DNA of 64,000 nucleotides, from contig JAIVGO010000094.1 in assembly GCA_020201525.1 (NCBI GenBank), positions 4,126 to 68,125 on the forward strand, in the 5' to 3' direction. Position numbers and translations under genes: made by a program. The stretch comes from Actinomycetota bacterium (GTDB lineage: Bacteria > Actinomycetota > AC-67). The stretch's first letter is position 1, and each line of letters starts with the position of its first letter. The notes beneath the pieces are model-generated. The model saw only the letters and a program-made list of their open reading frames with translations, did not search any database and was not told where the DNA came from. Of this stretch, positions 8,188 to 40,608 are shown one piece after another.

Positions 8188-8243
8188 TGCGTCTATTCAT
8201 CCGTTCGGGCCGGAGTTCGAGCTTCCCTCGGCATAGGAGGCCG

Positions 8244-14556: not shown

Positions 14557-15996
14557 GGCGGACTCAACCGGCCGTCGCAACACCTCGATCACGGAGGTGC
14601 CGGTGGCGACGCAACGGGAAGTTCGGCTTTATCGGGGTCAGATCCCGTCGCCGGGTCGGCCGACGGTGGCCTGGCGCGAGGACCGGGTTCGCTTCTGGTC
14701 GGCTATCGCGAGCGGGACAACGACCGAGGACGCTGGTGTCGAGGCGCGCGTGTCAGTCCCCGTCGCGTGCCGATGGTTCCGACACGCTGGCGGTGTGAAC
14801 CCCTGCCTCTCATCAACAGTTTCGGGTCGCTACCTGTCGTTCCCCGAGCGCGAAGACATTGCGATCTTCCACGCCCAGGGATGTGGCGTGCGCGAGATCG
14901 CTCGGCGTGTGGGCCGGAGCCCGTCGACGATTTCCCGAGAACTGCGGCGCAACGCGTCGACACGGACTTGCCGGCTTGACTACAAGGCATCGATCGCGCA
15001 ATGGCACGCCGAGCGTCGAGCTCGACGGCCAAAGATCGCCAAGTTGGTCACCAACGACCTGCTCCGCGAGTACGTGCAGGAGCGCCTCTCCGGATCGGTG
15101 CGGACCGCTGATGGACGGGTCGTCGGCCCGGCCGGACCAGAATGGAAGGGTCGCAACAAGCCCCATCGAGGGGATCGGCGGTGGGTGAAAGGCTGGAGCC
15201 CCGAACAGATCTCCAAGCGCCTCAGGGTCGAGTTTCCCGATGATGAGTCCATGCGGATCAGTCATGAGGCCATCTACCAGGCCCTCTACGTGCAGAGCCG
15301 AGGAGCGCTGGAACGGGAGCTGGTCGTGTGCCTTCGCACCGGGCGGGCGCTCCGGGTCCCCCGACCTCGCTCCCGGCAGAAGGCGTGGGCCCACGTCAAA
15401 CCCGAGGTGATGATCAGCGAGCGTCCGGACGAGGCCCAGGACCGGGCCGTTCCCGGCCACTGGGAAGGGGATCTGCTCATCGGTCTGCAGCGTTCGGCGA
15501 TCGGCACGGTCGTTGAGCGCACGACCAGGTTCACGATGCTGATCCATCTGCCACGTGAGGACGGCTTCGGTGTCATCCCCCGAACCAAGAACGGACCGCC
15601 GCTCGCCGGCTACGGCGCAGTCAAGATGAAGAACGCCCTCGCCGCAACGATGACCACGCTGCCCGAGCAGCTGCGCCGATCGTTGACATGGGACCGAGGC
15701 AAGGAGCTGTCCGCTCATGCAGCGTTCCGAGTCGAGACCGGCATCCCGGTCTACTTCGCCGACCCCCGCAGCCCCTGGCAGCGCGGAACGAACGAGAACA
15801 CCAACGGCCTCCTGCGCCAATACTTCCCCAAGGGGACCGACCTCTCCCGCTGGACCGCTGAAGAAGTCGAGGCCGTCGCCAACACCCTCAACAGTCGGCC
15901 CCGCAAGTCCCTCGGCTGGAAGACCCCCGCCGAGGCTTTCGACGAACAGCTACGCTCCCTCCAACAGGCCGGTGTTGCCACGATCGATTGAGCCCA
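14557..15996 (+). mobile_element. IS30-family insertion sequence nested inside IS3 orfB.
   Basis: Imperfect terminal IRs: ggcggactcaaccggccgtcgcaacacc at the left end versus ggtgttgccacgatcgattgagcc at the right end (equivalent on reverse complement). Candidate 3-bp target duplication cag at 14554-14556 and 15997-15999. The IS3 OrfB reading frame resumes exactly after it (FTSIRYGE...). Confidence 0.7.
14603..15991 (+). CDS. IS30-family transposase.
   Basis: GGAGG at 14593-14597, then GTG at 14603. Two N-terminal HTH regions (RVRFWSAIASG..., GRSPSTISRELRRN). DDE region with GHWEGDLLIG and NENTNGLLRQYFPKGTDLS, as in IS30 transposases. Confidence 0.8.
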   Translation: MATQREVRLYRGQIPSPGRPTVAWREDRVRFWSAIASGTTTEDAGVEARVSVPVACRWFRHAGGVNPCLSSTVSGRYLSFPEREDIAIFHAQGCGVREIARRVGRSPSTISRELRRNASTRTCRLDYKASIAQWHAERRARRPKIAKLVTNDLLREYVQERLSGSVRTADGRVVGPAGPEWKGRNKPHRGDRRWVKGWSPEQISKRLRVEFPDDESMRISHEAIYQALYVQSRGALERELVVCLRTGRALRVPRPRSRQKAWAHVKPEVMISERPDEAQDRAVPGHWEGDLLIGLQRSAIGTVVERTTRFTMLIHLPREDGFGVIPRTKNGPPLAGYGAVKMKNALAATMTTLPEQLRRSLTWDRGKELSAHAAFRVETGIPVYFADPRSPWQRGTNENTNGLLRQYFPKGTDLSRWTAEEVEAVANTLNSRPRKSLGWKTPAEAFDEQLRSLQQAGVATID

Positions 15997-20984: not shown

Positions 20985-23900
20985 ATGCGCCGTTCGTCGC
21001 CCTCTACTGCCGCGACTCGCACCTCTCTGCACCGGGCACGCCGTTGGGCCGTGCGACCTACGGCGTGGATGATGGCCTTGAGTGTGATCACAAGTGGTCT
21101 GTCGATCGTGCCGGCGGTGGCAGCCGGCGCCGAAGCGAAGTCGGGAACGGCGGGGACGACGACCTTGGCCAATGTGCCTTCCGAACCGGCTGCGGCGCCG
21201 ACGGCTCCGGCGGTGCCTCTCGGCGACTTTTCGAATCCTCCGTCGCGGGAATCCAACAAGTCGTCCATGACCACTTCGGCTGGGCCGACGATCCGCGTCC
21301 AGCCGGCGGCCGACCGATTCAGGCCGGGGAAGAGCGTCGAGCTGCCGGAGCTCCGCAAGGCGAACGAGAAGACGTTCCTCAATCCGGACGGGAGCCACAC
21401 CACCCAGGTCTTCAACGCCCCTGTCCACGTGCTCGATTCGTCCGGGAAGTGGGAGGATCTCGACACGACGCTGACCTCCGCGGTCGGCGGACGGTTCAAG
21501 TCGAAGACCACCCAGGCCCCGGTGGATGTAGCCGCGAAGGGCACCGACGCGGTCTTGGGTCGCCTGACGGTGGACGCCAACCACAGCGCCGCCTTCGCCA
21601 TGGCCGGCGCGCGCCAGGTTCCGGCCACGGTGGCAGGCGACGTGGCGACCTACACGGGGATCCAGCCGGGCGTGGATCTGCGTCTCGCCAGCCATCCCGA
21701 CGGGCTCAAGGAGGATTTGGTCCTGGCGTCGAAGGATGCCCCGGATCATTTTGTCTTCCCGTTGACCCTGAAGGGCTTGACCGCTTCCATTGATAGCACC
21801 ACGGGCGACGTGGTCTATCGCAACAGCGCTGGGACGGAGGTGGCCCGGACTCCTCACGGGTGGATGGCAGACTCCAACGTGGATCCCAAGTCGGGCGAGC
21901 CGGCCCGCAGCTTCGGAGTGGTGTATCGCTTGGTCGACATCGGCAAGGGCCACGTGGCGCTCGATGTGCAGCTCGACCGGGCGTGGCTCCAGGCCCCGGA
22001 ACGGCAATTCCCGGTGACCGTTGACCCTTCGTACTGGCTGTCGACCACGCTGTCCGACGACACCTATGTGCAACGACCGTTCGTCAACAACCAGGGGTTT
22101 TGGTCGACGGACAGTGTGCTCAAGGTGGGCCATGCCGACGACCCGGGCCTTCCGTCGGACAACTTGGCCCAGTCGTTCATGCACTTCGACGTCTCGGGAC
22201 TCAACGGCAAGCAGATCGTGGATGCCAGCTTCTACGCCTACGAGACCTGGTCATGGTCATGTGCTGCTCGGGGCGTCGGGCTGTACCGGATTACCCAGCC
22301 GTGGTCGACGTCGGACTCGTTCATGCAGAGCTTCCCCGGCGCCAGCTATGCCGACCAGGTGGCGTGGGGATCGTTCGCCATGGGCCACGACGCCGGCTGT
22401 CCGGCCGGCTGGGCGTTTTGGGACATCACCCCGACGGTGACGAAGTGGACCAATGGGACGTGGGACCAGTACGGGCTGATGCTGAAGGTCGACTCTGTCT
22501 CCGAGGGCGACGTCTACGCCTGGAAGAAGTTCGCGTCGTGGAATACGGCGCTTGCGACCAGTTCCTGCGACATCCCCGGCAACCCGAACCCCGAAGATCC
22601 CTACCTCACGAAGTGCATTCCCCACATCAACATCGACTGGCAGGACCCGGCTCCGCCGAATAATCCCCCGACTGCGCCTGCGATGGTGACGCCGCCCTCG
22701 CCCGGCAACGGCACGGGCATCGGCACGCTGACGCCGCAGCTGCAGGTGTCGTCGACCGACCCGGACGGCGACGCCATCAGCTACCGGACCGAGGTCTCGA
22801 CCGATCCGGGGTTCGGGTCATTCACGGCCGTGTGTGACTGGGGCGGCCCGACCTGCAATCCGACCGGGCTGGCTTGGAACCGCACCTACTACTGGCGGGC
22901 CTGGTCCCGCGACGCCACCCACACGACGAGTCCCGCCGCCGTGTGGTCGTTCTCGACCCCGAACGCGGCACCCAGTCCGGGCACGCCGTTGACGCCCCCC
23001 AACGGCAACGGCATCACCACGCTCATGCCGATCCTGGAAGCCAACGCGGGATCGGATCCCAACAACGATGCCTTGCGCTACTGGTTCCGTCTCTCCGCCG
23101 ACGACGACCCCGAGGTCCACACCCTGTGGGATTCCGGCTGGCTGAACTCCTCCCAGTGGGTGATCCCCGGGATTCCCAGCGCGAAGGTCGTCAACCCCGC
23201 GCAGCCGACCACGCCGATCCTCAAGGACGGCGCCACCTACTCGTGGAAGCTGTACAGCACCGACGACATCAATGGGCAGGTCCAGTCAGCGACCTGGAAG
23301 TTCAAAGTCAGCTTCCGCCTCGGTGACCAGCCCTCCAGCCCGCTCGACGCGGTCGGGCCGGTCACGGTGAATCTTGCCACCGGCAACGTGGTCGTCAAGG
23401 CCGCTACCCCGACGATGACGACGGTCAGCGGCCCGATGGGGATCAGCTTCACGTACAACTCGCTCGCGCCGGCGGCGAGCACTCCGGCGCTGCCCCAGGG
23501 CTGGTCGATGTCCCTCGACGACGAGGCCACCCTGGCCTACTCCGGTCTGCTCACCCAACCCAACGGTGAAAGCATCGTCCTTGTCAGCCCGGACGGCGGG
23601 ACAAGCGAATACCGGCGGACGGGGACGGCGACGTCGACCTGGGCGCCGCTCAACGCCGACGACAGCGCGGTCGTGACCCAGAGCAGCAACGGTGACTACA
23701 TCGTCCAGGGCGGCGACGGCATCACCTACCGCTTCGGCCCCGACGGCCAGGGCAACTGGGTCCTGCAAGACGCCACCCAGGCAGCCGACGACCAGGGCCA
23801 CCCGAGCAGCCTGTTCTCGCACTGGGACACGACCACCGGTCGTCTCAGCAGCGTCGAGGATCCGGTCTCGCATCGCAGCATGAACCTGATCTATGGCGGC

Positions 23901-26900
23901 GGCAGCCCGGATTACTGCTTCCCACCCACCGAGACCGGCATCTCCACGCCGGCGCCGGGTCGGTTGTGCCGAATCGAGTTCACCGATGGTGCCAACCCGA
24001 TCTTCAGCACCAAACTCGGCTACGACTTCGACATCTCGGGGCCCGATCAAATCATCGCGATCCAGAACCCCCCGTCGACGGCGGGCGGTGCCGACTATGA
24101 CGAGACGAACTTCGTCTACGCCAACCAGGGCGCCTACGGGCTGCGGATGACCGCCATCCGCTCCCCGTTGGCCAACGACAACAACCAGAACCCGGCCGAG
24201 CTCAAACGGACCGACAGCGACCCTCTCCAGCTCATGACCGTGCTCGGCTATTACACCAGCGGGCCGGCCGGCGGGAAGGTGGCCAGTGTCGAACTGCCCC
24301 GGGCGCTGCAGTCCGACCCGTCCCGCATCATCCACTCCTACGGCTACTCGGTCCAGTCCGTCGACGTTGCCAGCGCGCCGAATCTCTACTCCGAGCACAC
24401 CGATGTCACCGTCGACGACGCCGATCCCCAGCCGGCGCCGCCGGCGCCGGGCGCCCCGGACCTCAACCTGACGCTGGCGAAGGTTCGCCACGTCTACCTG
24501 AACCTCCTCGGTCAGGTCATCACCGACCAGGACCCTGCCGGCAACGCCACCCATTCCGACTGGTGGCCCGACGATCGCGTCCGCTGGACGACCGACGCTT
24601 CGGGACGACGGACCGGCACGGCCTATGACCCGGAGCATCGCGTCGCCCACGTCTATGGGCCCGCCCCGGTCCAGATCGGCTCGACGGCATGCTTCAGCAG
24701 CGTGGCTCCGGAGTTGCCCAGCGGGAACTGCGCCGTCCCCGACACCAGCACGGCCTACGACGGCACCGGCAAGTTCTACACCTACAACGTCAACGACTCG
24801 ACCGTGTCGCCGATCATTCCAGCCGCCGGCGCCTCAACAGGATCGCCGCTCAACGCCGACGGCAGTTCGCTGATGCGGGGCCTTATCGCTTCGTACTGGG
24901 CCGCCGATCCCAATGGCCAGTGGCCGCCGAGCCCCGGTGCGTTCATCGGTCAGCCGGTCGCCCACGAGCTGATCGCCCCGGCCAGCGGGACCTTCGACCA
25001 AACCTGGAGTAGTTCTCCGCCAGGGATCGCCGCCGGGAACCAGAAGTGGCTCGCCCGCCTCACCGGCGAGGTCGTCGCTCCTCAGCCCATCGACCTCAGA
25101 CTCGTCGCTGATGACGGCGTGCAGATCTACGTCGATGACCAACTGCAGTCAGGAGGCAATTTCTGGGGCTGCTGCGTGAACCAGCAGACCCAAAACAATG
25201 GCGTAACCATCCCCATCGGGGTTCACCGGATCAGGATCGACTACTTCCAAGACACCCTCGGTGCCCATCTCCAGCTGGTGTGCGTCAACGGCTGTTCAGG
25301 GTCGTTGCCGCTCAGTTACCTCAGCCCCCGCCTCGGTCTGGTCACCTCGACTCGAGACGCTGACGGCAAGATCACCACCACGCAGTACGGCGACACCTCC
25401 AATGCGACCTACGCCGCGGACATCGCCCGGGCGAACCCCATGATCACCACCGTCGATCCCGGCGGCGCCAATCTCAAGACGACCACGATCTACGAACCGG
25501 TGGGCGCCGGGACCTATGCCCGACTGAAGACGAAGCAGCTGCCCCGGTGGTACGGCAACCTCAGTCCCGCCACCATGACCACCTCGACCTACTACGACGG
25601 GACTGTCGGCAAGACAAACCCCTGCCTGCCCGACCCCCAGACGCCCGTCATCCAATCCGGGCTGTTGTGGAAGACCACCGGCCCCGACCCGGCCGGGCCC
25701 GACCAGGCCCGAGTCGAAGAACAGATCTACGACGTAATGGGCCGCGTTGCCGCCACCCGGGCGGCGGTCGCTGACCAGGAACCCAACGACGCGTGGACCT
25801 GCGCCGTCTATGACGACCGCGGCCAGGTGACATCGAGTTCGGACCGGCTCGGGAACACGACCACGAACACCTACCTCGGGCTGCGCACCGCCTCGACGTT
25901 CCCGGACTCGAAAGGCGTATCCCGCACCACCACCCAAGACGTCGATCTCCTCGGTCGTCCCGTCCGCTACACCGACGAGTGGGGCACCGTCACCCGCACC
26001 GTCTACGACTACCTCGGCCGGGCCGTCTCCACCTACCGGACCCTGACCGGGACCTCAACCGAGGTGAAGCTCACCGACCTCGTCTACAACGACGCCGGCG
26101 GGGTCATCTCCACCACCGAGTACAGCTCAGGCGTCGGCCGCACCAGCACCTTCACGTACGACCCCGCCGGCCGCCTCCTGAACACCAACCGCCCCAACCA
26201 GGTCAACACGGTCGAGACCTACAACGATCAAGGCGCGGTCGCCACCCTCACCGACAAGCGGGCCACGAACCCCGCCCGGCAGTTCTCCTACACCCGCACC
26301 GCCGGCGGTCGGATCGTGACCGAATCGGAAAGCGTGACTGCGCACACCACCAGCTACCTGAAGGCGGACGGCGTCACCCCCGCCTACGACGGCGCCGGTC
26401 GGCTCACCCGGGCCGTCGACGGCGCCACGATCCGAACCTACGACTACGACTCCGACAGCAACCGCTGCTCGACGTCCTCGACCGTCACGGACTGCTCCGA
26501 CACGGCCTACGAATACGACGAGGCTGACCGGATCACCGCCTCACCGTTCGCCGCGCAATATCACCATGACCTCCATGGCAACGTCGACTGGACCAAAGAC
26601 GGCGCCGGCAACTTCCTCCTGAGGTATACCTACGATGGCAACGACCACGCCACGAGCATCGACGACGGCGCCACCGTCACCACCGACACGCTGACCCCGT
26701 CCGGGCGAGTCCTCGAGCACGTCGTCGCTCCGTCCGCAGGCGGGCCGCCCACGGTGGACCTCATCTACGGCTACGCCGGCTCCGGCGACTCGCCCGCATA
26801 CCAGATCAACAACCTCGCCACCAGCGGCACGTCGTCCGGGAGTCAGCCCCGCTCGTCGGCCAGCGCCCACAACAACGCCGGCGTCGACACCACCCTGGTC

Positions 26901-28919
26901 ACGCCAACCCCCGCCGGGGTTCTGGCCGGCGACGTCATGATCGCCGCGATCGCCACCCGCGGCGTCGCCACCGTCAGCGCCCCGACCGGCTGGAACCAGA
27001 TCGGGACCGGCATCGCCAACGGCAGCAGCATGACCGTGAGGAGCTACTGGAAACTGGCCAACGGCTCGGAACCCGCCAGCTACGCCTGGACACTCTCCGA
27101 AGCGAAGGCGGCCACCGGCAGCATCGTCGCCTACAGCGGCGTCGACAGCACCAACCCGATCGACGTCACCGCCGGATCATCGAACCTGTCGAACTCGACG
27201 TCGATCGTCGCTCCCAGCGTCACCACCACCGCGGCCAACGAACGGGTCGTCGGCCTGTTCGCCACGATGGCCACCGCCACGCCGGCGCTGATCAACCCGC
27301 CAACCGGGATGGTGGAACGAGGCGAGGACAGCGCTGATGCCAACGCTCAGCCACCCGCCACCCTCGAGGTCGCCGATTTCGTCCAGTCCATGGCAGGCGC
27401 CACCGGCGACAAGACGGCCACGGCCAACGCCGCCGACCGCACCACCGGCCAGCAGATCGCCCTGCGAAACGCCCCACCCCCCACCGGTACTATCACCGCC
27501 CGGAGCTGGACCGCCGGCCACAACGACGCCACCACCACCAGCGTCGTCGTCACCAAGCCGACCGGCACTGCCAGCGGCGACGTCCTCATCGCCGGCATCG
27601 CCACCCGAGGCACCCCGACCGTCACTGCACCGACCGGGTGGACCCTCATACGGACCCGGGAAACCGGCAGCAGCTGGACCCTCCAGAGCTACTACCACGT
27701 CGCCGGCAGCAGCGAACCGACGAGCTACACCTGGACCCTCTCGGTGGCCAAAGCCGCCGCCGGGACCGTCACCGCTTATACCGGAGTGGACACGACCAGT
27801 CCAATTGACGTGACCAGCGGCCATCTCGACAACACCGCCGCGACGTCGATCACCGCCACCGGGGTTACCACGACGGCGGGCAACGACCTCGTCGTCGGCA
27901 TCTTCGAGAACACCGGAGCAGCCACCTTCACCCCACCGGCAGGGATGACCGAACGGGGCGAAGACCAGTCCAACGCCGCCGGACAGTCCCACGTCGACAT
28001 TGAAACCGCCGACATTTCCCAGACCACGGCCGGTGCCACCGGCGACAAAATCGCCACCGGCAGTGCGGCGAACACCGGCGCCGCCGAACTCGTTGCCCTC
28101 CGAGCCGCTCCGTCCGCACCGCCGGCAACGACCTCCGTCACGACCATGATCAGCGGGCCGAGTGGGCTGCTTGTCATCGATACCAATGGAACCCCCGCCT
28201 ACCCCCTGGCCAACGCCCACGGCGACGTCATCGGCACTGTCGACGCCACGGGCGTCCTGACCGCCAACCCGCTGGTAGACGAGTTCGGAAAGGCCGTCGC
28301 CAACGGCCAGCCGGTCAACGGGCTCGGCTGGCTCGGCGACAAAGAACGCTTCACTGTCGCCGGCAATGGCACCATCCGCATGGGCGTCCGCCTCTACGAC
28401 CCCAACCTCGGACGATTCCTCTCCGTCGACCCCGTCGAAGGCGGGAGCGCAAGCGACTACGATTACGCCAAGGGCGATCCCGTCAACGACTTCGACCTCG
28501 ACGGACGGATGTGCTTCGTCAGGTGCGGCTGGGGCAGGGCGGGCCGGCGAGTTGCGCGAGTCGCGAGCGTCGTCGCTAATGCGACTTCCTTGTCCAGCAT
28601 TGCACTAGTCGGCGGGTGCGCTCTTGCAACCGTAGGGAGCGCTGGGATCGCCGGCGCAGTCTGCCTCGGCGCCACAGTTACCACTTGGGCGACCATTGGC
28701 GGTCACGCCGTCGCTGCCGCAGGATACGCAGTCGATCAGGACTGGGGCGCGGCGGGTCACTCAGCCTTCAATGCTGGCTGGTCATATCTCACAAGGAACA
28801 GCGGCGCTACCCGAGCGATCTTTGGTTCTGGACGTGGCTTCGCCTTCTTTCAGGTCGGCATCCATCTTCCTATCGCCGCCTGGAAATGGGCTTACAATAT
28901 GCGGCAGGAGATGTACTAA
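20985..28919 (+). CDS. Secreted RHS/YD-repeat polymorphic toxin (RHS2), 2644 aa. Order: shared N-terminal module, DNRLRE-like domain, FN3-like repeats, PA14-like domain, YD shell, tandem inserted domains, RHS core, glycine-zipper CT.
   Basis: Signal peptide. PA14-like segment (RLVADDGVQIYVDDQLQ...IRIDYFQD). Many YD repeats. RHS core GNGTIRMGVRLYDPNLGRFLSVDP...DPVNDFDLDG. Then a 137-aa hydrophobic Gly/Ala-rich tail. Confidence 0.85.
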   Translation: MRRSSPSTAATRTSLHRARRWAVRPTAWMMALSVITSGLSIVPAVAAGAEAKSGTAGTTTLANVPSEPAAAPTAPAVPLGDFSNPPSRESNKSSMTTSAGPTIRVQPAADRFRPGKSVELPELRKANEKTFLNPDGSHTTQVFNAPVHVLDSSGKWEDLDTTLTSAVGGRFKSKTTQAPVDVAAKGTDAVLGRLTVDANHSAAFAMAGARQVPATVAGDVATYTGIQPGVDLRLASHPDGLKEDLVLASKDAPDHFVFPLTLKGLTASIDSTTGDVVYRNSAGTEVARTPHGWMADSNVDPKSGEPARSFGVVYRLVDIGKGHVALDVQLDRAWLQAPERQFPVTVDPSYWLSTTLSDDTYVQRPFVNNQGFWSTDSVLKVGHADDPGLPSDNLAQSFMHFDVSGLNGKQIVDASFYAYETWSWSCAARGVGLYRITQPWSTSDSFMQSFPGASYADQVAWGSFAMGHDAGCPAGWAFWDITPTVTKWTNGTWDQYGLMLKVDSVSEGDVYAWKKFASWNTALATSSCDIPGNPNPEDPYLTKCIPHINIDWQDPAPPNNPPTAPAMVTPPSPGNGTGIGTLTPQLQVSSTDPDGDAISYRTEVSTDPGFGSFTAVCDWGGPTCNPTGLAWNRTYYWRAWSRDATHTTSPAAVWSFSTPNAAPSPGTPLTPPNGNGITTLMPILEANAGSDPNNDALRYWFRLSADDDPEVHTLWDSGWLNSSQWVIPGIPSAKVVNPAQPTTPILKDGATYSWKLYSTDDINGQVQSATWKFKVSFRLGDQPSSPLDAVGPVTVNLATGNVVVKAATPTMTTVSGPMGISFTYNSLAPAASTPALPQGWSMSLDDEATLAYSGLLTQPNGESIVLVSPDGGTSEYRRTGTATSTWAPLNADDSAVVTQSSNGDYIVQGGDGITYRFGPDGQGNWVLQDATQAADDQGHPSSLFSHWDTTTGRLSSVEDPVSHRSMNLIYGGGSPDYCFPPTETGISTPAPGRLCRIEFTDGANPIFSTKLGYDFDISGPDQIIAIQNPPSTAGGADYDETNFVYANQGAYGLRMTAIRSPLANDNNQNPAELKRTDSDPLQLMTVLGYYTSGPAGGKVASVELPRALQSDPSRIIHSYGYSVQSVDVASAPNLYSEHTDVTVDDADPQPAPPAPGAPDLNLTLAKVRHVYLNLLGQVITDQDPAGNATHSDWWPDDRVRWTTDASGRRTGTAYDPEHRVAHVYGPAPVQIGSTACFSSVAPELPSGNCAVPDTSTAYDGTGKFYTYNVNDSTVSPIIPAAGASTGSPLNADGSSLMRGLIASYWAADPNGQWPPSPGAFIGQPVAHELIAPASGTFDQTWSSSPPGIAAGNQKWLARLTGEVVAPQPIDLRLVADDGVQIYVDDQLQSGGNFWGCCVNQQTQNNGVTIPIGVHRIRIDYFQDTLGAHLQLVCVNGCSGSLPLSYLSPRLGLVTSTRDADGKITTTQYGDTSNATYAADIARANPMITTVDPGGANLKTTTIYEPVGAGTYARLKTKQLPRWYGNLSPATMTTSTYYDGTVGKTNPCLPDPQTPVIQSGLLWKTTGPDPAGPDQARVEEQIYDVMGRVAATRAAVADQEPNDAWTCAVYDDRGQVTSSSDRLGNTTTNTYLGLRTASTFPDSKGVSRTTTQDVDLLGRPVRYTDEWGTVTRTVYDYLGRAVSTYRTLTGTSTEVKLTDLVYNDAGGVISTTEYSSGVGRTSTFTYDPAGRLLNTNRPNQVNTVETYNDQGAVATLTDKRATNPARQFSYTRTAGGRIVTESESVTAHTTSYLKADGVTPAYDGAGRLTRAVDGATIRTYDYDSDSNRCSTSSTVTDCSDTAYEYDEADRITASPFAAQYHHDLHGNVDWTKDGAGNFLLRYTYDGNDHATSIDDGATVTTDTLTPSGRVLEHVVAPSAGGPPTVDLIYGYAGSGDSPAYQINNLATSGTSSGSQPRSSASAHNNAGVDTTLVTPTPAGVLAGDVMIAAIATRGVATVSAPTGWNQIGTGIANGSSMTVRSYWKLANGSEPASYAWTLSEAKAATGSIVAYSGVDSTNPIDVTAGSSNLSNSTSIVAPSVTTTAANERVVGLFATMATATPALINPPTGMVERGEDSADANAQPPATLEVADFVQSMAGATGDKTATANAADRTTGQQIALRNAPPPTGTITARSWTAGHNDATTTSVVVTKPTGTASGDVLIAGIATRGTPTVTAPTGWTLIRTRETGSSWTLQSYYHVAGSSEPTSYTWTLSVAKAAAGTVTAYTGVDTTSPIDVTSGHLDNTAATSITATGVTTTAGNDLVVGIFENTGAATFTPPAGMTERGEDQSNAAGQSHVDIETADISQTTAGATGDKIATGSAANTGAAELVALRAAPSAPPATTSVTTMISGPSGLLVIDTNGTPAYPLANAHGDVIGTVDATGVLTANPLVDEFGKAVANGQPVNGLGWLGDKERFTVAGNGTIRMGVRLYDPNLGRFLSVDPVEGGSASDYDYAKGDPVNDFDLDGRMCFVRCGWGRAGRRVARVASVVANATSLSSIALVGGCALATVGSAGIAGAVCLGATVTTWATIGGHAVAAAGYAVDQDWGAAGHSAFNAGWSYLTRNSGATRAIFGSGRGFAFFQVGIHLPIAAWKWAYNMRQEMY
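26893..28125 (+). repeat. Tandem duplication of a ~195-aa domain of unknown function inside RHS2, between the last YD repeats and the RHS core.
   Basis: Copy 1: TLVTPTPAGVLAGDVMIAAIATRGVATVSAPTGWNQI...SYWKLANGSEPASYAWTLSEAKAATGSIVAYSGVDSTNPIDVT...ERGEDSADANAQ...AGATGDKTAT. Copy 2: TSVVVTKPTGTASGDVLIAGIATRGTPTVTAPTGWTLI...SYYHVAGSSEPTSYTWTLSVAKAAAGTVTAYTGVDTTSPIDVT...ERGEDQSNAAGQ...AGATGDKIAT. Confidence 0.5.
28508..28919 (+). other. C-terminal toxin (CT) domain of RHS2: glycine-zipper-rich hydrophobic domain, predicted membrane-inserting or ionophore-like toxin.
   Basis: After DPVNDFDLDG: ...ATSLSSIALVGGCALATVGSAGIAGAVCLGATVTTWATIGGHAVAAAGYA... (GxxxG/AxxxG zippers). GC is lower than the RHS body. 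Confidence 0.45.
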
Positions 28920-29201
28920 ATGCAGACCAGACGGGGCGATATCTTTGGCTTCAGCATCAGCGGCGTCATCGTTGCTATCCCCATCTTCATCATGGTGGCC
29001 GCGAACAAGCGTGCACCGGATTTAGCTCCGCTAGTTGCCGCCCTGGGAGGATTCGCTGGGATCATGGCTTCTGGCCTGGCATGGGCCAGCCTTGGCCGCC
29101 CTCCTGCCGAACGGCTGTTACGAGACCGGCCTGGCCTTGCGCTCTTGTGCTTCGCCCTTTTCGTCGTTGGCCTGATTCCTACAATCGTCTGGAGTAAATA
29201 G
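28920..29201 (+). CDS. Small three-helix membrane protein, putative cognate immunity protein for the RHS2 CT.
   Basis: The ATG directly abuts the RHS2 TAA. 93 aa with three hydrophobic segments (ISGVIVAIPIFIMVAA / LVAALGGFAGIMASGLAWASL / LALLCFALFVVGLIPTIVW). GC is lower. Confidence 0.6.
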   Translation: MQTRRGDIFGFSISGVIVAIPIFIMVAANKRAPDLAPLVAALGGFAGIMASGLAWASLGRPPAERLLRDRPGLALLCFALFVVGLIPTIVWSK

Positions 29202-29401: not shown

Positions 29402-29797
29402 GTGATCAAAGAGTTCTGCCGACCACGACCGTGGGAGCCTGGGCGCCTACGGCATAGGCACTGCGCCCTTCTTCCAGCCCTTGCCCTGTTTCTGGTGGCT
29501 GGGTGCGCGTCATCGCATCATCTGAACGTTACGGCCGCGGGCTCTGCCCCAACGATTGAGATACAAGGGTCCTTCAACGGCAGCTCTACGACAGTGACGA
29601 CCTCGATCCCGACGTCGAGCACAGCGCCTACGTCAACGAGCGTGACAGTGGCGACCATCACGTCGACTACAAGAACTCCCGCAGCGACCGCCACGACGCA
29701 GAAGTATCTGGCAGGCACGACGACGAGCACTTTTCCAACAAGCGCGATCTGTCTGACGATCGTCAACGAGCACCCGAGCGCCGTGGAGTGGGCGTGA
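29402..29797 (+). CDS. Ser/Thr-rich lipoprotein. The downstream overlapping ORF 29788-30039 may be a frameshifted continuation.
   Basis: ALLPALALFLVAGCASS has a lipobox, followed by a Thr/Ser-rich low-complexity stretch. Confidence 0.35.
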   Translation: MIKEFCRPRPWEPGRLRHRHCALLPALALFLVAGCASSHHLNVTAAGSAPTIEIQGSFNGSSTTVTTSIPTSSTAPTSTSVTVATITSTTRTPAATATTQKYLAGTTTSTFPTSAICLTIVNEHPSAVEWA

Positions 29798-30382: not shown

Positions 30383-31372
30383 CTACGGAGCAACCGGTAG
30401 CTGACCGGCCCCGGGCGGAAGCCCCGTGGCCCCGGGGATCTGCATCGCCGGGATGGCGATCTGCTGCTGCAGCTTCACGAACGCTCGGCCAAGATGATTC
30501 TCGACGATCTTCGCCGCTGGACCGGCGAAGGTGTGCATGGTGGCGTGGAAGACGCTGAGCACCGCGTCTTGGAGCTGCTGGTCGTCTTCCAGATTTTCGA
30601 TCACCAGCCCTTGGGCCCGAGCACTTTCCCTGTCGATCCCGAGTCCATGAGATCTATGGATCGAATAGTCGCCAAAGAAGGCGGCAATTTCGGCCGCCTT
30701 CTCGGCGCCGCCCTCCTTGTCCTCTCGGAACATGTATCTCGCGAGCCACTCCGCAACCAGGTTCTTCGCCAGCTTCTCGGCGTTCTCGCACTCCTCGATC
30801 AGGGAAGTGCCGTACTGCTGCAGGATGGGGTACCACGCCCCGAGGACAGCTGGATTCTCGGCGCTCTCGCGCTTAGCGCGCTCGAACTGTTCGATGATCG
30901 CTCGAGCTGGCGCGAAACGCTGCTCAGTCGGTCGGAAGAACTGCGGACCGATCGGGCCTAGCTGGGAGTGCTTGCCCATCACGATGGCATCTCCCGCCAG
31001 CGCCCACATCGTGCCGGCGGACATCGCGGCCAAGGGGACGAGCACGCGGATGTGGTCAAACTTCTTCCGGAGGTACTTGACGATGCTGGCCGTCGCCTCG
31101 GCGCTACCACCCGGGCTGTGGATGATCAAGTCCAGGTTCGGCCCTTGGAGCCCACGGCAGACCTCCATCATTGCCTGCATGTCTTCGAGCGTGATTGACG
31201 ACGCCGGGTTGCTCCCCGCGAGCCAGTCGGTCGCGTACAGGATCGTCGGTCGGCCGGTGTAAAGGTGCAGCCGCTGTAGGTAAGCGCGCCGGATGGTGTC
31301 GAAGTCGGGTGGGCCACCTCGCGCTTGAGCCGACGCGTGGAGTTCGGCCAGGATTTCACCCCACGTTGGCAT
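30383..31372 (-). CDS. SDH-family (ClpP/crotonase-fold, S49-like) serine protease.
   Basis: LDLIIHSPGGSAEATASIVKYLRKKFDHIRVLVPLAAMSAGTMWALAGDAIVMGKHSQLGPIGPQ; compare ClpP (IN)SPGG. No signal peptide. Confidence 0.7.
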   Translation of the reverse strand: MPTWGEILAELHASAQARGGPPDFDTIRRAYLQRLHLYTGRPTILYATDWLAGSNPASSITLEDMQAMMEVCRGLQGPNLDLIIHSPGGSAEATASIVKYLRKKFDHIRVLVPLAAMSAGTMWALAGDAIVMGKHSQLGPIGPQFFRPTEQRFAPARAIIEQFERAKRESAENPAVLGAWYPILQQYGTSLIEECENAEKLAKNLVAEWLARYMFREDKEGGAEKAAEIAAFFGDYSIHRSHGLGIDRESARAQGLVIENLEDDQQLQDAVLSVFHATMHTFAGPAAKIVENHLGRAFVKLQQQIAIPAMQIPGATGLPPGAGQLPVAP

Positions 31373-32665: not shown

Positions 32666-35600
32666 ATGGCTCGTCATCGCTCACTTGTCGCGCTGCTCGC
32701 GGCCACACTCATCACAGGCCTGCTAGCCCTGATACCTGCCACGCCAACGGCGCTGGCCGCAGCCAACAAGACGACACCCCGCCTCGTCAGGCAGACCGAG
32801 ACCACGGACGTCTACGCCAATGCCGACGGGAGCCGGACAGCGGTCTTCTATGCCGGGCCGGCGAACTTCTTCGACAAGACCACGAACCAGTGGCGCAAGC
32901 TCGACAAGGAGTTCCGTCGAGTCGGCGACCACCTCGAGAACGGCGCCGGGCCGGTGCGGGTCCAGCTGCCCAGCGATACCTCTGCCGGCAAGGTCACCGT
33001 GGCCAAGGACGACTGGTCGGCGAGCTTCGCGCTCGAGGACGCGAAACCCAACCGGCCCGGCAACGTCACCAAGGGCCAGGTCCGCTACGACGACGTCGCT
33101 GCCGCCGCCGGGGTGAGCCTCGACTATCGGATGTTGAGCAACGGCTTGAAAGAGGACATCGTCCTCGACCAGTCCCTGCCCGCCGGGTCGCCGGACCACT
33201 TCCGCTTCCGCCTCTCCGTCGCCGGAGCCACCCCGGCTGCCGTCGATGGCGGTACGGCCATCGCGCTCCAGGATGGCGCCGGCCACGAACTCGCCCGGAT
33301 CCCCCGGGGCATGATGGTCGACGCCAAGGGAGCAAAGGGCGTCGTGGACATGCATCTCGTCGAGCAGGGCGCATCCTGGTTTGTCGACGTCGCCCCAGAC
33401 CCAGCCTTCCTTCGAGGTGACCGGGCCTATCCCGTGCGCATCGATCCCAGCATCATCTACACGGCGACGGCGCCGACCGACTCCTTCACGGACTCGGTCT
33501 GCACGACCTGCAACTACAACGGCATGGCCACCCTCAAGGCCGGCTGGGCCAACGGCATGCCGGGGACCACGGAGTACTACTCGTACATCCGCTTTCCTGA
33601 CCTCACCCCCATCGTCGGCAAATGGGTCGCCAACGCCCAACTCCGTCTCGAAGCGACCTACCAGGTCGATCCGTCGAGCTACGGCGTGACCGCCTTGCGG
33701 ACCCACCAGTCGTGGAACGCCTCGACCATCACGTGGTCGAACATGGCGAACCACGGGCCCGAGAGCTCCCACGCGGCCGCCGGGGGCTACCCGGACTACT
33801 ACTTTGACGTCACCAGCTGGGCCCAGGGCTGGGCCGGCGGGCAAGACGGCGAGTGGATCAACGGCAAGTGGAGCCCCTACGGCGCCACCATCAACACCGC
33901 CGGCGCCGCCGCCTACTACCAACTCGGCGCCGCCGAATCGACCTTCGTGCCCAACATCCCCTCGCTGTCGGTCACCTACACCAACCAGAGCCCGAACCTC
34001 CCGACCGCGTTGTCGCCGGCCGACGGATGGACGGGAACCTCAACGCCCCAGCTCAGCGCCACGCTCAGCGACCCCGACGACAGCAACGGCTGGATCGAGT
34101 TCGACCTCGACAGCGCCAACACCGCCATCGTCCCAACCGTCAACGGGATCGCCTCCTTCACCCCGACGCTCGGAGCCGGCACCCACTCGTGGAGGGCTCG
34201 CGGCAGAGACTTCGATAGCGCCGGCCCCTGGACGGCCTTGCGGTACTTCACCGTCAACACCGCCCCCGCTATGCCGGACCAGCTCAGCCCCGCCGATGGC
34301 TACTACAGCACGACCCTGCCTGCCTTGTCGGCTCGCTATGTGGACGTCGACAACAACAGTGGGTCGCTCGCGTTCGAAGTCGACGGCGTGGCCCATTCCG
34401 TGACCGGAATCGCCAACGGCGCAACCGGCTCCTGCACGACAGCCAACCTGTGCCTCCCGAGCAGCCTGGCCCCGGGTCTCCACTCCTGGCGCGTCCAAGC
34501 TGTCGACGGGCTCGGGCTTCCCTCCACCTGGTCGCCGTACCAGCAGTTCGAGTACCACTATGCCGGGCAGGTTGTGCGCGAGGAATTCCCCGTCAACGGC
34601 TCGCAGTGGGACACTACGAAATGGGCGATCTCGAGCGGCCTCACCGTCTCGAACAACCAAGGTGTCTTCCCGGCCAGCACTGCATCGAAGCGGGCGACCG
34701 CGACAGCCGCCTACTTGCAGGACTCCGAAGTTTCGTTCACCTACTCCATCCCGGACCGCACGGCGGGAACCGAACTGCGCACCACGCTGCGAGGATACGG
34801 CGCCACCGGATCGGCGCAACTCCCCAACGGTTATCGCCTCGACATCCCATCAGGTCTGAATCAAGATGGTTCGACCACCATCTCACTCAAGAAGCTCGTG
34901 AACGGAGTGGTCACGCCGCTCGGATCATCCTTCAACTACACCGGGTCAGGCTACGTCAATACTCGTGTGCGGTTCCGTGTGGATGGTTCGACAATCAGCG
35001 TCAAGGTATGGCCGGCTGGAACGCTAGAGCCAACAGCATGGTCGGCTCAAAGGACTGACAGCAGCATCACTGCGGCCGGGACGCTTCAGATCGCCCAGTC
35101 CTGGCAGACCGGAAGCGGCCGCGTGATCAACGTCGACAACGTTACCTACGAAAACCGGTCCTTCTGGGGCGTTGACTCCTCGAAACCGATCAATCAGGCG
35201 AGGCTCGATGTCCTGAACACGCAGTATGGGGGAAGGCCGAACGTCTGGGGCCGGTACCTCACGACGCAAAAGTTAGACCGCCAGACATATGAAACGACGT
35301 ATTGCCCCCGGTGCGGTCTGAACGAAGAGCCTCCGGGCGACGAGATCACCTTCGCACAAAACAACAAGATCGCGATCCAAGTCATCCAACGGGCCAACAA
35401 CGGTGACATCCTCCTCGGTGAGCAACTCGGGCGCGACTACGCAAATCTCGCCCAGGAGCATGCGCAACGGCTCGGGATCCCCACCAGCGTGGCGATCTTC
35501 ATGAACATCGAGGAATGTGCGAACTCGTGTCGGGTTGATGCCGGATTCATCTGGGGGTGGTTCGATCAACTCGACCGAGTGTACGGACGCAAGGTGGGCT

Positions 35601-35989
35601 ACTACGCAAACACGACCACTATCCCGTCTCGGAGCGAGTTCGCGACTCAATTTTGCGCGGCGAACGCCGACCACGCTCGCGTCGGGTCCGACTCGTTCAT
35701 CTACGCCTCTGTGCCGTTCACCGGTCGCACGAAGGAGAGCGAAGCGCCGCCGTATGCTGCCAGCAACTTAGATTGCGGAGTCGTGTCTTCGACTGCGTGG
35801 CAGTACGGCCTCGCTGGCCAGGACCGGGCGTCGGGCTCGACCCTGACCGACCACCCTCAGGCCAAGTCGGACCCTACGCAAGGGCCGTCAGACTTCGACA
35901 CCGACCTGATCAAGCCGGAGCTGACTGACGTTCTCTGGTATCCAGGCGGCGTTTCCTGTCCCGCGCCTCGTGGCGCATACTGCATCTAG
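32666..35989 (+). CDS. Secreted multidomain protein, 1107 aa. Order: shared N-terminal module, DNRLRE-like domain, two FN3-like domains, LamG/ConA-like domain, C-terminal GH-like TIM-barrel domain (DUF1906/Rv2525c-like).
   Basis: Signal peptide MARHRSLVALLAATLITGLLALIPATPTALAAA. N-module homologous to the RHS1/2/3 N-termini. VKVWPAGTLEPTAWS LamG-like motif. C-terminal FWGVDSS...ILLGEQ...AIFMNIEE. The C-terminal third has lower GC. Confidence 0.8.
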   Translation: MARHRSLVALLAATLITGLLALIPATPTALAAANKTTPRLVRQTETTDVYANADGSRTAVFYAGPANFFDKTTNQWRKLDKEFRRVGDHLENGAGPVRVQLPSDTSAGKVTVAKDDWSASFALEDAKPNRPGNVTKGQVRYDDVAAAAGVSLDYRMLSNGLKEDIVLDQSLPAGSPDHFRFRLSVAGATPAAVDGGTAIALQDGAGHELARIPRGMMVDAKGAKGVVDMHLVEQGASWFVDVAPDPAFLRGDRAYPVRIDPSIIYTATAPTDSFTDSVCTTCNYNGMATLKAGWANGMPGTTEYYSYIRFPDLTPIVGKWVANAQLRLEATYQVDPSSYGVTALRTHQSWNASTITWSNMANHGPESSHAAAGGYPDYYFDVTSWAQGWAGGQDGEWINGKWSPYGATINTAGAAAYYQLGAAESTFVPNIPSLSVTYTNQSPNLPTALSPADGWTGTSTPQLSATLSDPDDSNGWIEFDLDSANTAIVPTVNGIASFTPTLGAGTHSWRARGRDFDSAGPWTALRYFTVNTAPAMPDQLSPADGYYSTTLPALSARYVDVDNNSGSLAFEVDGVAHSVTGIANGATGSCTTANLCLPSSLAPGLHSWRVQAVDGLGLPSTWSPYQQFEYHYAGQVVREEFPVNGSQWDTTKWAISSGLTVSNNQGVFPASTASKRATATAAYLQDSEVSFTYSIPDRTAGTELRTTLRGYGATGSAQLPNGYRLDIPSGLNQDGSTTISLKKLVNGVVTPLGSSFNYTGSGYVNTRVRFRVDGSTISVKVWPAGTLEPTAWSAQRTDSSITAAGTLQIAQSWQTGSGRVINVDNVTYENRSFWGVDSSKPINQARLDVLNTQYGGRPNVWGRYLTTQKLDRQTYETTYCPRCGLNEEPPGDEITFAQNNKIAIQVIQRANNGDILLGEQLGRDYANLAQEHAQRLGIPTSVAIFMNIEECANSCRVDAGFIWGWFDQLDRVYGRKVGYYANTTTIPSRSEFATQFCAANADHARVGSDSFIYASVPFTGRTKESEAPPYAASNLDCGVVSSTAWQYGLAGQDRASGSTLTDHPQAKSDPTQGPSDFDTDLIKPELTDVLWYPGGVSCPAPRGAYCI

Positions 35990-37644: not shown

Positions 37645-40608
37645 TCAGGGTCCGATGTCGATGCCAGCGCCCATGTCGGGCCCCGGAAGGGGCGGTCGGG
37701 CGACTTCGGCAAGGCGGTCGAGCCAGGGCGGCGTGTCTGGCGCCGCCCGGGGCAGCGATGCTTCCCGAGATTGGCTCAGTTCCGGCGACAGGCCAAGATC
37801 GGCGAGTTCGGCCTCGACGGTGCGGAGCCGGGAGTCGGGGAATCTGTGCTCGACATCCCATTTGAGGCGCTGGTCCGCTTCGGGTCGCAGCTCCTCGATC
37901 ACACGTTCGCAGCCGTCGATCTTCGCTTCGGCCTTGCGGACATCGCCGGTGAACCGGTCAATCTGATCGAGGGTTGAGGCTTTTTCTCGGCGGCCGTGAC
38001 TCCGGAACTGGGAGAGCCGGCCGAGCTGGTCGAGCCGTTCGCGGGCGTGATTGAGCCGGTAATGAGCCCAGTACAGCTCCTTCTTGGCTGATTCGAGGCG
38101 CAGTTCCGCCTGGTGCAGTGCTGGCCGGCGGTCAGGCGGGCGGTGCTGGAGGAGCGCCCGGAGCTCGGCTCGTTCGGCCAAGAGCAACTGAAGGCGGCTG
38201 GGGGCGTCGTGGATGGCGAAGCCGCTGTCGGGTTGGCGGCGGAGGGCGTCGAGGACTTCCCGGGTGGGGGTGCGCTGGTCGGCGAGGACGCCGCCGTGGT
38301 CGATGTCGGGCAGTCGGGTGACGTTCCAGGTGTGGGTGGCGTGGCGGGATCGGCTCTGGCCGGTGTAGCCGGTGAAGCGTTCGAGGGCGGCGGTGCCGAG
38401 GAGGTGGACCTGTTCCCACGTGCCGCCCTGGATGCCGTCGACGGTGCGGGCCCAGGCGTGGGAGCAGTTGGGACTGCCGTCGGCGCGGCGGCCTTCCACG
38501 AATTCGTGCGGGAGGGCCAGCCGGTGTCCCTCGCGGTCGACGGCCTGCAGCCCGTCGGCGCCGATGGCCGTGACGGTGAGGATGCTGCCGTTGTGGAGCC
38601 GCTGACCGTCGGTCCGGAGGGTGCCGTGGACGAGGAGACGGTCGCCGGCGGCGTAGCGGCGTTCGCCGTTGTTCCAGGCAGGGCCGGCCAGTTCGGGGCC
38701 GTGGAGATGGCCGGTGGCTCGGAGGCGGTGGCGGATGCGATCGGCGAGGTCTTCGCAGTCGGCGTGGGAGACGGCTAGGGCGACGAGCCCGGCGGCGCCG
38801 TGGCGGTCGATGTCGGCCATGAGGGCGTCGGCCAGCGCTTCGCGGGTGGCGTGGGGAGAGCCGAGGTCGTGTTCCCAGCCGTGGTCCTGTCGGATGGCCT
38901 GGCTGGTGGCGACGAGCCCGGCGCGGTAGCGGGCTAGGGCCCGTTGTTCGGCCGGGTCGAGTTGGCGGCGGTTCTCGGTCAATTCCGGGGCGGGGATGTG
39001 GCCGGTGGCACCGAGGCGGGCCAGTTCCGCACCGAGGCCTCCGGCCCGGACGGCTTGGGCCTGGTGGGGGTCGCCGAGGCACCACAGGGTGGCGCCGGGG
39101 GTGGCGGCGACGGCGTCGAGGACGATCTCGGCGTCGCTCGTGGCGACCTGGGACACCTCGTCGAGGACCACGACCGTCCCGGGCGGGAGGGCGGCGCCGT
39201 CGAGGGCGAAGCGGGCGATGGTCGTGGCGTCGATGCCGGCCTGGCGGAGTTCGCAGGCGGCCTGGTTGGTGGCGGCCAGGCCGAGGACGGGGTGTCCGGC
39301 CGCGCCGGCGGCCGTTGCGGCGGCGTGGACGGTGGTGGTCTTGCCGAACCCGGCGGGGGCGATGACGGTGCGGATGGCCGGGCCGGCGGCGCACAGCGCC
39401 TGGACGGCGTCGGCCTGGTCGTCGCCCAGGCCGGGCCTTTCGCCGGCGATCGCCCGCTTGACCAGTGGCGGTGGGATGGCGTCGACCGGCGTGGCGCACA
39501 GGTCAGCCACCAGATCCAGAACCCGCTCCTCGAGCAGGAGGTGGTCCGCGGTGGAGTACTGCGGCGACGTACGGCCGGTGCGGTCGGCCAGGGGGACGGC
39601 GTGCTCGGAGGCGAGAAAGGCGTCGGCCAGATCCTCGATGGCGTCGACGGGGAGGCGGCCGGCGCCAAGGGCGGCGATGTGTTCGACGACGTGCGCTTCG
39701 TTGAACCGGGCCCGCCGGGCGCACAGGCCTTCTTCCGGTTCGATGAGGGCGTCGACGAGGTCGTCCCACTCCAGCCCGGGCCGGAGCATCGGGATCGTCC
39801 GCCCGCAAACCTCGGCTTCGAGGGCGTGGCCGGTCGGCATCCCGATCCCATCGGCTTCGGCCTGCCACCGTTCCCGAAGCACCTCGGGAGTGAGGGAGCC
39901 GTCTCTGCGGGGTCGGGTGGCCAGTGATGCCGCCTCGTCCGCCCACATCCGCTGCTTGGGGTCGGGGTTCTCCGGGCCGGCGCCGGCCAGGTAGTCGTCG
40001 ATGGCGACCGTGCGCTTGGAGAACGTCCGCAGCCATCGGGGATCGAACCCGGCGATCTCCCGGCAGCCGTGGCGGTCCGGTCCCCATTCGACCCCCAACC
40101 GCTCGGTGAGACGCCGGCGGAGTTCTTCCTGGTACACCGATCCCGCCGCCCGGCCCCACTCGTAGAGCGGGGTGGCATCAAGCGCGGCGTAGGTGCCGTC
40201 GGGGCGGCGGCCGAAGTTGGCCACCACACAATGGCTATGCAGCTGGGGGTCACCATCGCGACTCGTCCGGTGAACGAAGGTGGCCGCCGCCACACCCGTC
40301 GGGATCCGCTGGCGTTCGCCCTCGACCTGGAGCCTCGTCGCTCCCGCCCGCCGCTCCAGCAGATCGAGGGCCACCGCCACGGCCTCGACATGAACGATCG
40401 ACGCCACCGATGCCACTTCCGGTGAGCCAAACGCCCACAGCAGCGACACCGATTTCGGCGCCGAGAACGTCACATCAAACGCCATCACCGTCCGGGCCCG
40501 ATGCCCGGCCAGCAGCTCGGTGTCCGTGGCCGGGTCCCGGCCGAGGAGTCCTTCACTGCCCCAAACTGGACCCCGCTCGGGATGGTCGAGGAGGCAAGTG
40601 CAACACAT
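37645..40608 (-). CDS. MobF-family conjugative relaxase with RecD-like helicase (TrwC/TraA-like). About 35-40 N-terminal aa appear to be missing, so it may be a pseudogene.
   Basis: Relaxase motifs FDVTFSAPKSVSLLWAFG and ATFVHRTSRDGDPQLHSHCVVANF. Helicase P-loop APAGFGKTT. The ORF opens at ...HPERGPVWGSEG with no upstream relaxase-like sequence; a stop lies about 100 nt upstream in frame. Confidence 0.75.
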   Translation of the reverse strand: MCCTCLLDHPERGPVWGSEGLLGRDPATDTELLAGHRARTVMAFDVTFSAPKSVSLLWAFGSPEVASVASIVHVEAVAVALDLLERRAGATRLQVEGERQRIPTGVAAATFVHRTSRDGDPQLHSHCVVANFGRRPDGTYAALDATPLYEWGRAAGSVYQEELRRRLTERLGVEWGPDRHGCREIAGFDPRWLRTFSKRTVAIDDYLAGAGPENPDPKQRMWADEAASLATRPRRDGSLTPEVLRERWQAEADGIGMPTGHALEAEVCGRTIPMLRPGLEWDDLVDALIEPEEGLCARRARFNEAHVVEHIAALGAGRLPVDAIEDLADAFLASEHAVPLADRTGRTSPQYSTADHLLLEERVLDLVADLCATPVDAIPPPLVKRAIAGERPGLGDDQADAVQALCAAGPAIRTVIAPAGFGKTTTVHAAATAAGAAGHPVLGLAATNQAACELRQAGIDATTIARFALDGAALPPGTVVVLDEVSQVATSDAEIVLDAVAATPGATLWCLGDPHQAQAVRAGGLGAELARLGATGHIPAPELTENRRQLDPAEQRALARYRAGLVATSQAIRQDHGWEHDLGSPHATREALADALMADIDRHGAAGLVALAVSHADCEDLADRIRHRLRATGHLHGPELAGPAWNNGERRYAAGDRLLVHGTLRTDGQRLHNGSILTVTAIGADGLQAVDREGHRLALPHEFVEGRRADGSPNCSHAWARTVDGIQGGTWEQVHLLGTAALERFTGYTGQSRSRHATHTWNVTRLPDIDHGGVLADQRTPTREVLDALRRQPDSGFAIHDAPSRLQLLLAERAELRALLQHRPPDRRPALHQAELRLESAKKELYWAHYRLNHARERLDQLGRLSQFRSHGRREKASTLDQIDRFTGDVRKAEAKIDGCERVIEELRPEADQRLKWDVEHRFPDSRLRTVEAELADLGLSPELSQSREASLPRAAPDTPPWLDRLAEVARPPLPGPDMGAGIDIGP

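Follow-up and report, generated by a model that had tools for sequence, protein, structure and literature searches.

A rare Rhs tip and the small membrane-protein gene behind it: a candidate membrane-active toxin/immunity cassette in an Actinomycetota genome

Does the variable end of RHS2, a large Rhs (YD-repeat) protein of an Actinomycetota bacterium, form a toxin/immunity pair with the small gene that follows it, and where would such a toxin act? RHS2 is encoded in a stretch of 64,000 nucleotides (nt), hereafter the window (assembly GCA_020201525.1, contig JAIVGO010000094.1, positions 4,126 to 68,125 of the forward strand), whose own numbering is used below. An earlier note had proposed a membrane-depolarising or pore-forming effector paired with an integral-membrane immunity protein. 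The pairing was borne out by the Rhs core, by relatives of both proteins and by the presence of the small open reading frame (ORF) at three loci, while the mechanism is something we infer. Comparison of the sequences gives good support for a genuine, very rare toxin/immunity cassette, since at every locus the tip lies beside Rhs sequence and the same membrane-protein gene comes after it. The features on which the argument turns are the following.

20985..28919, + strand: RHS2 gene, from the ORF list, 2644 amino acids (aa)
20985..21140, + strand: predicted N-terminal export signal, a basic n-region with RR, the hydrophobic WMMALSVITSGLSIVPAVAA, then AGA/EA
28281..28505 (aa 2433-2507), + strand: Rhs repeat-associated core, TIGR03696 E=1.4e-11, reading ...RLYDPNLGRFLSVDPVEGG...DPVNDFDLDG
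28506..28916, + strand: variable tip of 137 aa, predicted toxin, directly after the Rhs core
28906..28910, + strand: AGGAG ribosome-binding site, within the end of RHS2 and 9 nt 5' of the ATG of the small ORF
28920..29201, + strand: 93-aa ORF with three transmembrane (TM) segments predicted from hydropathy, GenBank MCA1832872.1, hypothetical

RHS2 has the make-up of an Rhs/YD polymorphic toxin, with repeats, a core that carries both aspartates ahead of the tip, and a compositional break together with a small gene. A cluster look-up identified its GenBank entry as MCA1832871.1, labelled 'DNRLRE domain-containing protein'. The DNRLRE/CBM96-type domain responsible for this label covers aa 359-522, a PA14 match was also returned by the domain search, and the YD/RHS repeats were recognized by PF05593 (E=1.1e-5, four stretches) and TIGR01643 (E=6.8e-9). 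Between these repeats and the core lie two tandem repeats of ~205 aa (aa ~1960-2400, window ~26865..28180), 52% identical to each other (E=2e-58) and without a Pfam match, an unusual insertion before the shell plug.

The DPVNDFDLDG string terminates at aa 2507, and exactly 137 residues were counted after it, as previously claimed. Upon alignment with solved Rhs proteins (PDB 7q97 and 8fjp), VDPVEGG and DLDG of RHS2 sit opposite DPIG and DPLG of 7q97, which pairs Asp2482 and Asp2504 with the aspartates of the two DPxG motifs. The equivalent residues of the Pseudomonas aeruginosa toxin Tse5 are the catalytic aspartates D1141 and D1164, and that protein is cut after L1168, four residues past the second of them (PMC10684867). 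By this analogy the RHS2 tip should start near M2509, with release expected at about R2508|M2509. At the other end of the protein, a 20-residue hydrophobic stretch (Kyte-Doolittle (KD) mean of 1.85 over the 19 residues from aa 29 to 47), preceded by the basic n-region and followed by AGA/EA, makes the N-terminus look like an export signal.

The tip boundary coincides with a change in base composition. The GC content of third codon positions (GC3) is 0.866 in the body of RHS2 but only 0.664 over the tip and 0.645 over the small ORF, and overall GC drops too, which agrees with the lower GC claimed for both.

The small ORF immediately adjoins RHS2. Its start had been placed on the RHS2 stop codon; the TAA in fact occupies 28917-28919 and the ATG begins at 28920, so that the two genes abut with zero overlap. 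The encoded protein carries hydrophobic segments at about aa 8-28, 35-57 and 70-91 (KD maxima of 2.5, 1.8 and 2.6), and the same three segments, of predicted TM length, are kept in both of its homologues (P0006 and P0007). Of its description as an all-helical membrane protein, the three strongly hydrophobic segments are confirmed and the helicity is not established, the AlphaFold models reaching a pLDDT (predicted local distance difference test) of only 37-44. With loops of just about 6 and 14 aa between its segments, the protein would have to recognize a toxin in or at the membrane. Six Lys and Arg residues are found on the N-terminus and loop 2 versus three on loop 1 and the C-terminus, and we favor a predicted N-in, C-out topology. 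A promoter and terminator scan around the cassette gave nothing above shuffle expectation.

Relatives of the tip are extremely scarce. An exhaustive HMMER search of 1.84 billion representatives yielded four matches at E<=0.001, namely RHS2 itself, two relatives (P0003 and P0005) and P0004, a repeat protein that was matched through its composition and was dropped. P0003 is 52% identical to the tip over aa 12-133 and is located on an Acidimicrobiia metagenome-assembled genome contig (L001); the same locus was also recovered in an independent assembly (L003). The L001 frame stays open up to the edge of the contig, with ...PYIPSLGRFTALDPVEGGNPNDYIYPTDPINGYDLTG ahead of the tip, for which reason we consider this tip to be again joined to an Rhs core. 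Overlapping the tip end is an ORF of 104 aa with three hydrophobic segments, which over TM2-TM3 shares 33% identity with the window ORF (BLASTP E=1e-5). The L003 assembly carries in addition, at 1..2960, an IS21 element with minus-strand genes (IstA 1097..2674 and IstB 333..1100) between two inverted Rhs-core fragments leading to different tips, the left one of which (...DPVNGFDLDG RRCWFGVDHTEPDG...) leaves the contig.

P0005, for which only the last 35 tip residues were matched, is located on a JGI metagenome contig (L002). There, YD-repeat debris has been fused by a deletion to these 35 residues, and the toxin is eroded; an intact 97-aa ORF with three hydrophobic segments nevertheless follows the remnant with an 8-nt overlap. 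This is the classic orphan-immunity pattern, in which the immunity gene outlives its toxin, and a usual mark of polymorphic toxin/immunity pairs. The eroded Rhs locus (385..1433 of the contig) continues after the orphan gene with a second core remnant (YDYVCGDTINSLHLDG) bearing a 14-aa stub, and a MNT/HEPN pair is found farther along the contig.

At all three loci, the tip thus adjoins Rhs sequence and a homologous three-TM ORF follows, abutting or overlapping. Conserved in the three membrane ORFs are a W..GRP loop behind TM2, a Pro ahead of TM3 and a terminal G..P..VW, and a profile built from these ORFs recovered only the three themselves among 5.8 billion proteins (E 1e-32 to 1e-38). Smoothed hydropathy profiles correlate at r=0.79 for the tips and at r=0.67-0.85 for the immunity ORFs. 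The same scarcity could suggest a decaying remnant, with a non-toxic tip and a small ORF that is a chance frame, spurious ORFs being plentiful in high-GC DNA; three loci with singleton clusters, one of them visibly eroded, would fit such a picture. We regard it as highly improbable, given that the small ORF has been kept as a protein in hydropathy, loop motif and position across three divergent loci, that a correctly spaced AGGAG precedes it in the window, and that RHS2 is an intact frame of 2644 codons with an intact core.

To describe the tip itself, three segments were distinguished.

28506..28559, + strand: tip aa 1-18, cationic amphipathic segment, net +6 with zero acidic residues
28560..28733, + strand: tip aa 19-76, uncharged Gly/Ala/Val/Thr-rich core, 58 residues without D, E, K or R
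28734..28916, + strand: tip aa 77-137, aromatic-rich C-terminal part with 12 F/W/Y, net basic

The helical hydrophobic moment of the first segment amounts to 0.5-0.64. Within the core, IALVGGCALATVGSAGIAGAVCLGATV (tip aa 32-58) reaches a KD 19-aa mean of 1.6-1.75, and alignment with the homologue reveals a conserved Cys pair, C38 and C53. The length of the charge-free run exceeds chance in both proteins (58 aa in the window tip, p=0.003; 56 aa in the homologue, p=0.0014), p being the fraction of composition-preserving shuffles that reach that length. The third segment is the best conserved, at 58% identity versus 45% for the core. It carries the motif G.G.(G/A)FA(F/Y)(F/Y)Q.G(I/V)HLP.A.WK.A.N.R, and the alignment leaves H85, S86, N89, R97, N98, S99, R103, Q116, H120 and K127 invariant.

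This distribution of conservation would also suit a division of labor in which the C-terminal 60 aa bind or modify a component on the outer face of the envelope, the uncharged core serves only as an anchor, and the membrane immunity protein blocks the site. Example targets would be lipid II, undecaprenyl carriers, or a membrane protein receptor as for Gly-rich microcins. The ten invariant polar or basic residues of the most conserved segment argue for this model, as do the retention of that part only in the eroded metagenome locus, the marginal hydrophobicity of the core, and the two conserved Cys, which, 15 residues apart, could staple a hairpin instead of one long helix. An enzyme of sixty residues would however be very small, searches of families and of the PDB gave no match even at E<=10, and an immunity protein with such tiny loops offers little surface with which to block a soluble domain. 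We consider the model and its example targets unlikely, though it is the most serious of the competing explanations.

Database searches assigned neither protein to a known family. Searches of Pfam, NCBIfam, PADLOC and PHROGs with the tip and the small ORF returned no meaningful match, even at E<=10; the best family match, to MccV (E=6.2, on the homologue), was dismissed as reflecting composition only. Single sequences and profiles of both returned spurious matches only against PDB chain sequences (E<=10). When the tip was compared with 5.8e9 proteins through a word index, the result was empty and missed even the RHS2 protein itself, whereas the exhaustive search recovers it; an index of this kind seems to miss low-complexity queries rich in Gly and Ala. 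Scanning of the JGI metagenomes with automatic tip patterns, a search of metagenome and viral contigs with the degenerate motif QxG[IV]HLPxA[AV]WK, and tblastn against plasmids and phages each found none. Further Rhs-core or tip/immunity copies were likewise missing 3' of RHS2 within the window.

In another explanation, the hydrophobic core is an entry element that brings a small toxic domain through the target membrane to act in the cytoplasm, in the manner of CdiA-CT entry domains or of the Tde1 glycine zipper. Hydrophobic or glycine-zipper segments that serve translocation have a reported precedent (PMC10240207), and the toxins of contact-dependent growth inhibition (CDI) are built from entry and toxin domains (PMC11630599). 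Such a toxin should nevertheless be accompanied by a soluble cytoplasmic immunity protein, and the only conserved partner is the three-TM protein with its minimal loops. No nuclease or other enzyme signature was found in Pfam or NCBIfam, and the entire tip comprises just 137 aa. Taken together, this makes the entry element improbable.

A membrane-active mechanism is the most economical inference, on account of the conserved uncharged core of hairpin length, the cationic and aromatic flanks, the missing enzyme signature and the membrane-embedded partner. Immunity proteins reside at the site of action of their toxin, and those against antibacterial pore-formers are found in the cytoplasmic membrane (PMC9558359). 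We therefore read the tip as a membrane-inserting, depolarizing toxin that would be neutralized within the bilayer, functionally like Tse5 with its immunity protein Tsi5, and put the probability of this reading at roughly 0.55. We also lean towards a horizontally exchangeable cassette with which an actinobacterial Rhs protein, itself bearing a predicted signal peptide, terminates.

In the proposed sequence of events, RHS2 would be exported with the 137-aa tip enclosed in the YD shell, and the core aspartyl protease (Asp2482, Asp2504) would cut at about R2508|M2509. The tip would then be set free at the cytoplasmic membrane of a neighboring cell, where its cationic amphipathic start and its aromatic basic C-terminal part may bind the membrane interface while the 58-residue uncharged Gly/Ala-rich core goes into the bilayer. 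The membrane potential would be dissipated, either by an ion-conducting pore or by action on a membrane component. In the producer membrane, the 93-aa protein is predicted to block the inserted toxin by touching it inside the bilayer or along the bilayer's edge.

Several observations weigh against this reading. First, the glycine-zipper identity once suggested for the tip had to be rejected. Dominance of Gly, Ala and Val is indeed found (28 Ala, 20 Gly and 12 Val in 137 residues, that is 20, 15 and 9%), but the GxxxG/AxxxG zipper spacing claimed alongside it is not: the motif is absent and the spacing of small residues does not rise above composition-preserving shuffles. With the canonical definition taken from PMC12744356, (G/A/S)xxxGxxxG or GxxxGxxx(G/S/T), neither the window tip nor the homologous L001 tip contains a single match. 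The sole GxxxG of the tip (GSGRG) falls outside the apolar core. The observed count was reached by a fraction of 0.95 of the shuffles for GxxxG, 0.16 for small-xxx-small and 0.41 for three-step zippers, and the i+4 chain of small residues is also at shuffle level (fractions of 0.42 and 0.90, the former for the longest chain). The GxxxG/AxxxG spacing is a chance outcome of a sequence made up of 57% small residues.

Secondly, the tip core is only marginally hydrophobic (KD ~1.75), and a rough apparent insertion energy, summed from Hessa 2005 scale values, came to +2.4 kcal/mol for the window core and +0.6 kcal/mol for the homologue. Marginal hydrophobicity could suit passage through an export channel followed by later insertion, and it weakens a simple TM-helix reading. 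Thirdly, the C-terminal region of the tip shows amphipathicity of the beta type and not of the helical type, and its conserved polar and aromatic 60 aa could be a binding or catalytic site instead of part of a pore. Finally, the AlphaFold2 models are unusable, the tip alone (pLDDT 37) and the tip-immunity fusion (pLDDT 44) having contradictory secondary structures, and the three loci, all in singleton clusters, are too few for covariation or selection tests.

A more far-reaching version of the membrane-active reading, which we put forward tentatively and regard as less probable than the reading itself, would make the tip a new fold or family of membrane-permeabilizing toxins, nearer to the Gly/Ala-rich microcins than to helical zippers. 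The Rhs cage would allow its export from a monoderm cell via general secretion despite the 58-residue apolar segment, killing would proceed from outside with no import, and the three-TM protein would block the toxin inside the bilayer.

Among known systems, Tse5 (RhsP1, PA2684)/Tsi5 is the closest in function and layout and a direct precedent for the window cassette. Its Rhs cage holds a 149-aa pore-forming C-terminal toxin (CT) with a two-TM immunity protein (PMC9637101; PMC10684867), and the released C-terminal fragment inserts into membranes and depolarizes cells (PMC9637101; PMC10684867). Like Tse5, RHS2 combines an Rhs core bearing a predicted aspartyl-protease pair, a tip of the ~150-aa class with no enzyme signature, and an adjacent small membrane protein as its presumed immunity protein. 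The two differ in delivery and in partner: Tse5 is PAAR-like and is delivered by a type VI secretion system (T6SS) of a Gram-negative bacterium, whereas RHS2 is actinobacterial and has a predicted export signal with CBM96/DNRLRE and PA14-like domains, and Tsi5 has two predicted TM segments against three in the window ORF. No homology of the tip to Tse5-CT was detected at E<=10 against PDB chains, among which we assume full-length Tse5 to be present. With respect to the carrier, the WapA-type proteins of Bacillus subtilis and Streptococcus suis are likewise signal-peptide-bearing YD proteins of monoderm bacteria, in which the tip is polymorphic and the immunity gene lies next to it. The WapA tips known from characterized examples are nucleases, soluble like the immunity proteins that accompany them, whereas both members of the window pair are of the membrane type.

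A second candidate for comparison was Tox-WTIP, a small and very hydrophobic tip of Rhs and PVC (Photorhabdus virulence cassette) proteins, described by Zhang et al. in 2012 as a predicted pore-former that spans the membrane twice (PMC3482391). Its first helix contains RxxR and its second Wx[ST]IP, and it is reported from proteobacteria only (PMC3482391). The window tip contains two RxxR motifs, RAGR and RVAR, together with a WATIG that resembles Wx[ST]IP. It nevertheless has Gly in place of the motif Pro, the homologue (NVSIG) loses the Trp as well, and the RxxR motifs lie in the polar N-terminal segment and not in an apolar helix. Membership of this family was rejected, as there was no Pfam match at E<=10 and the motif is not conserved.

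The LXG toxins of type VII secretion systems (T7SS), TelE, EsxX/ExiCD and TspA/TsaI, are Gram-positive examples that depolarize cells from outside, with polytopic membrane immunity proteins of which orphan copies are common (PMC12744356). The toxicity of TelE, EsxX and TspA requires an extended canonical GxxxG zipper (PMC12744356). These toxins thus combine a zipper with LXG/T7SS delivery, whereas the window tip has no canonical zipper and is carried by an Rhs protein. In CDI, the ionophore toxins of the CdiA-CT EC93 family show that polymorphic C-terminal toxins can dissipate membrane potential (PMC11630599), and their immunity proteins are hydrophobic peptides of 72-100 residues encoded directly downstream and often unannotated (PMC11630599). 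That family differs from the cassette in its CdiA delivery through the type V secretion system (T5SS), its predicted five-helix bundle with a receptor-specific entry domain and its CdiI two-helix hairpin, and the tip is without sequence match to it.

Pore-forming colicins likewise insert an uncharged hydrophobic hairpin and are counteracted by small polytopic inner-membrane immunity proteins that act in the bilayer (PMC9558359; PMC11630599). The colicin pore domain is a soluble globule of 10 helices and ~200 aa, unlike the 137-aa tip, and this identity was rejected since neither Pfam nor PDB gave a match. The tip and the ORF are therefore a new sequence family inside a known type of system, in which specialists expect such cassettes.

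If the favored reading is true, the pair adds a new, sequence-unrelated toxin/immunity family to the few Rhs-delivered membrane toxins, of which Tse5 is the sole characterized case, and shows the Rhs membrane-toxin strategy at work in Actinomycetota, in Rhs proteins exported by a signal peptide. At 137 + 93 aa, the pair would also be a compact one for studying how an apolar toxin stays harmless during export and, equally, how a toxin is neutralized by a membrane protein within the bilayer. The cassette opens no long-standing question; its attraction lies in a pair that is compact, rare and experimentally tractable.

The remaining genes of the window include a second Rhs protein, RHS1 (676..8187, 2503 aa), which ends in an unrelated tip of ~200 aa containing HEIVH (HExxH-like). 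The RHS1 tip mirrors the GC3 break, from 0.915 to 0.654. A 138-aa ORF with a lipoprotein-like start (8184..8600) overlaps its end, and neither this ORF nor the RHS1 tip has a Pfam match. Directly downstream of the RHS1 cassette, at 8804..9306 on the minus strand, a HicA toxin (PF07927) is paired with a HicB-like antitoxin (PF15919/UPF0150).

On the 3' side of the RHS2 cassette, a Thr-rich ORF of 131 aa whose LVAGC resembles a lipobox (29402..29797, plus strand) and a gene for a ClpP-like SDH-type serine protease (30383..31372, minus strand) were noted, and no link between either of them and the cassette was found. Farther on, an 1107-aa protein (32666..35989, plus strand) has a signal-peptide-like start, a CBM96 domain as in RHS2 and, at its C-terminus, a glycoside-hydrolase-like domain of the Rv2525c-like type. 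The window also encodes an IS30-type transposase (HTH_38 + rve; 14411..15991, plus strand) and a TrwC relaxase that includes an AAA_30 helicase domain (37645..40608, minus strand), and these two place the Rhs genes in a region rich in genes of mobile elements, possibly an integrative or conjugative element.

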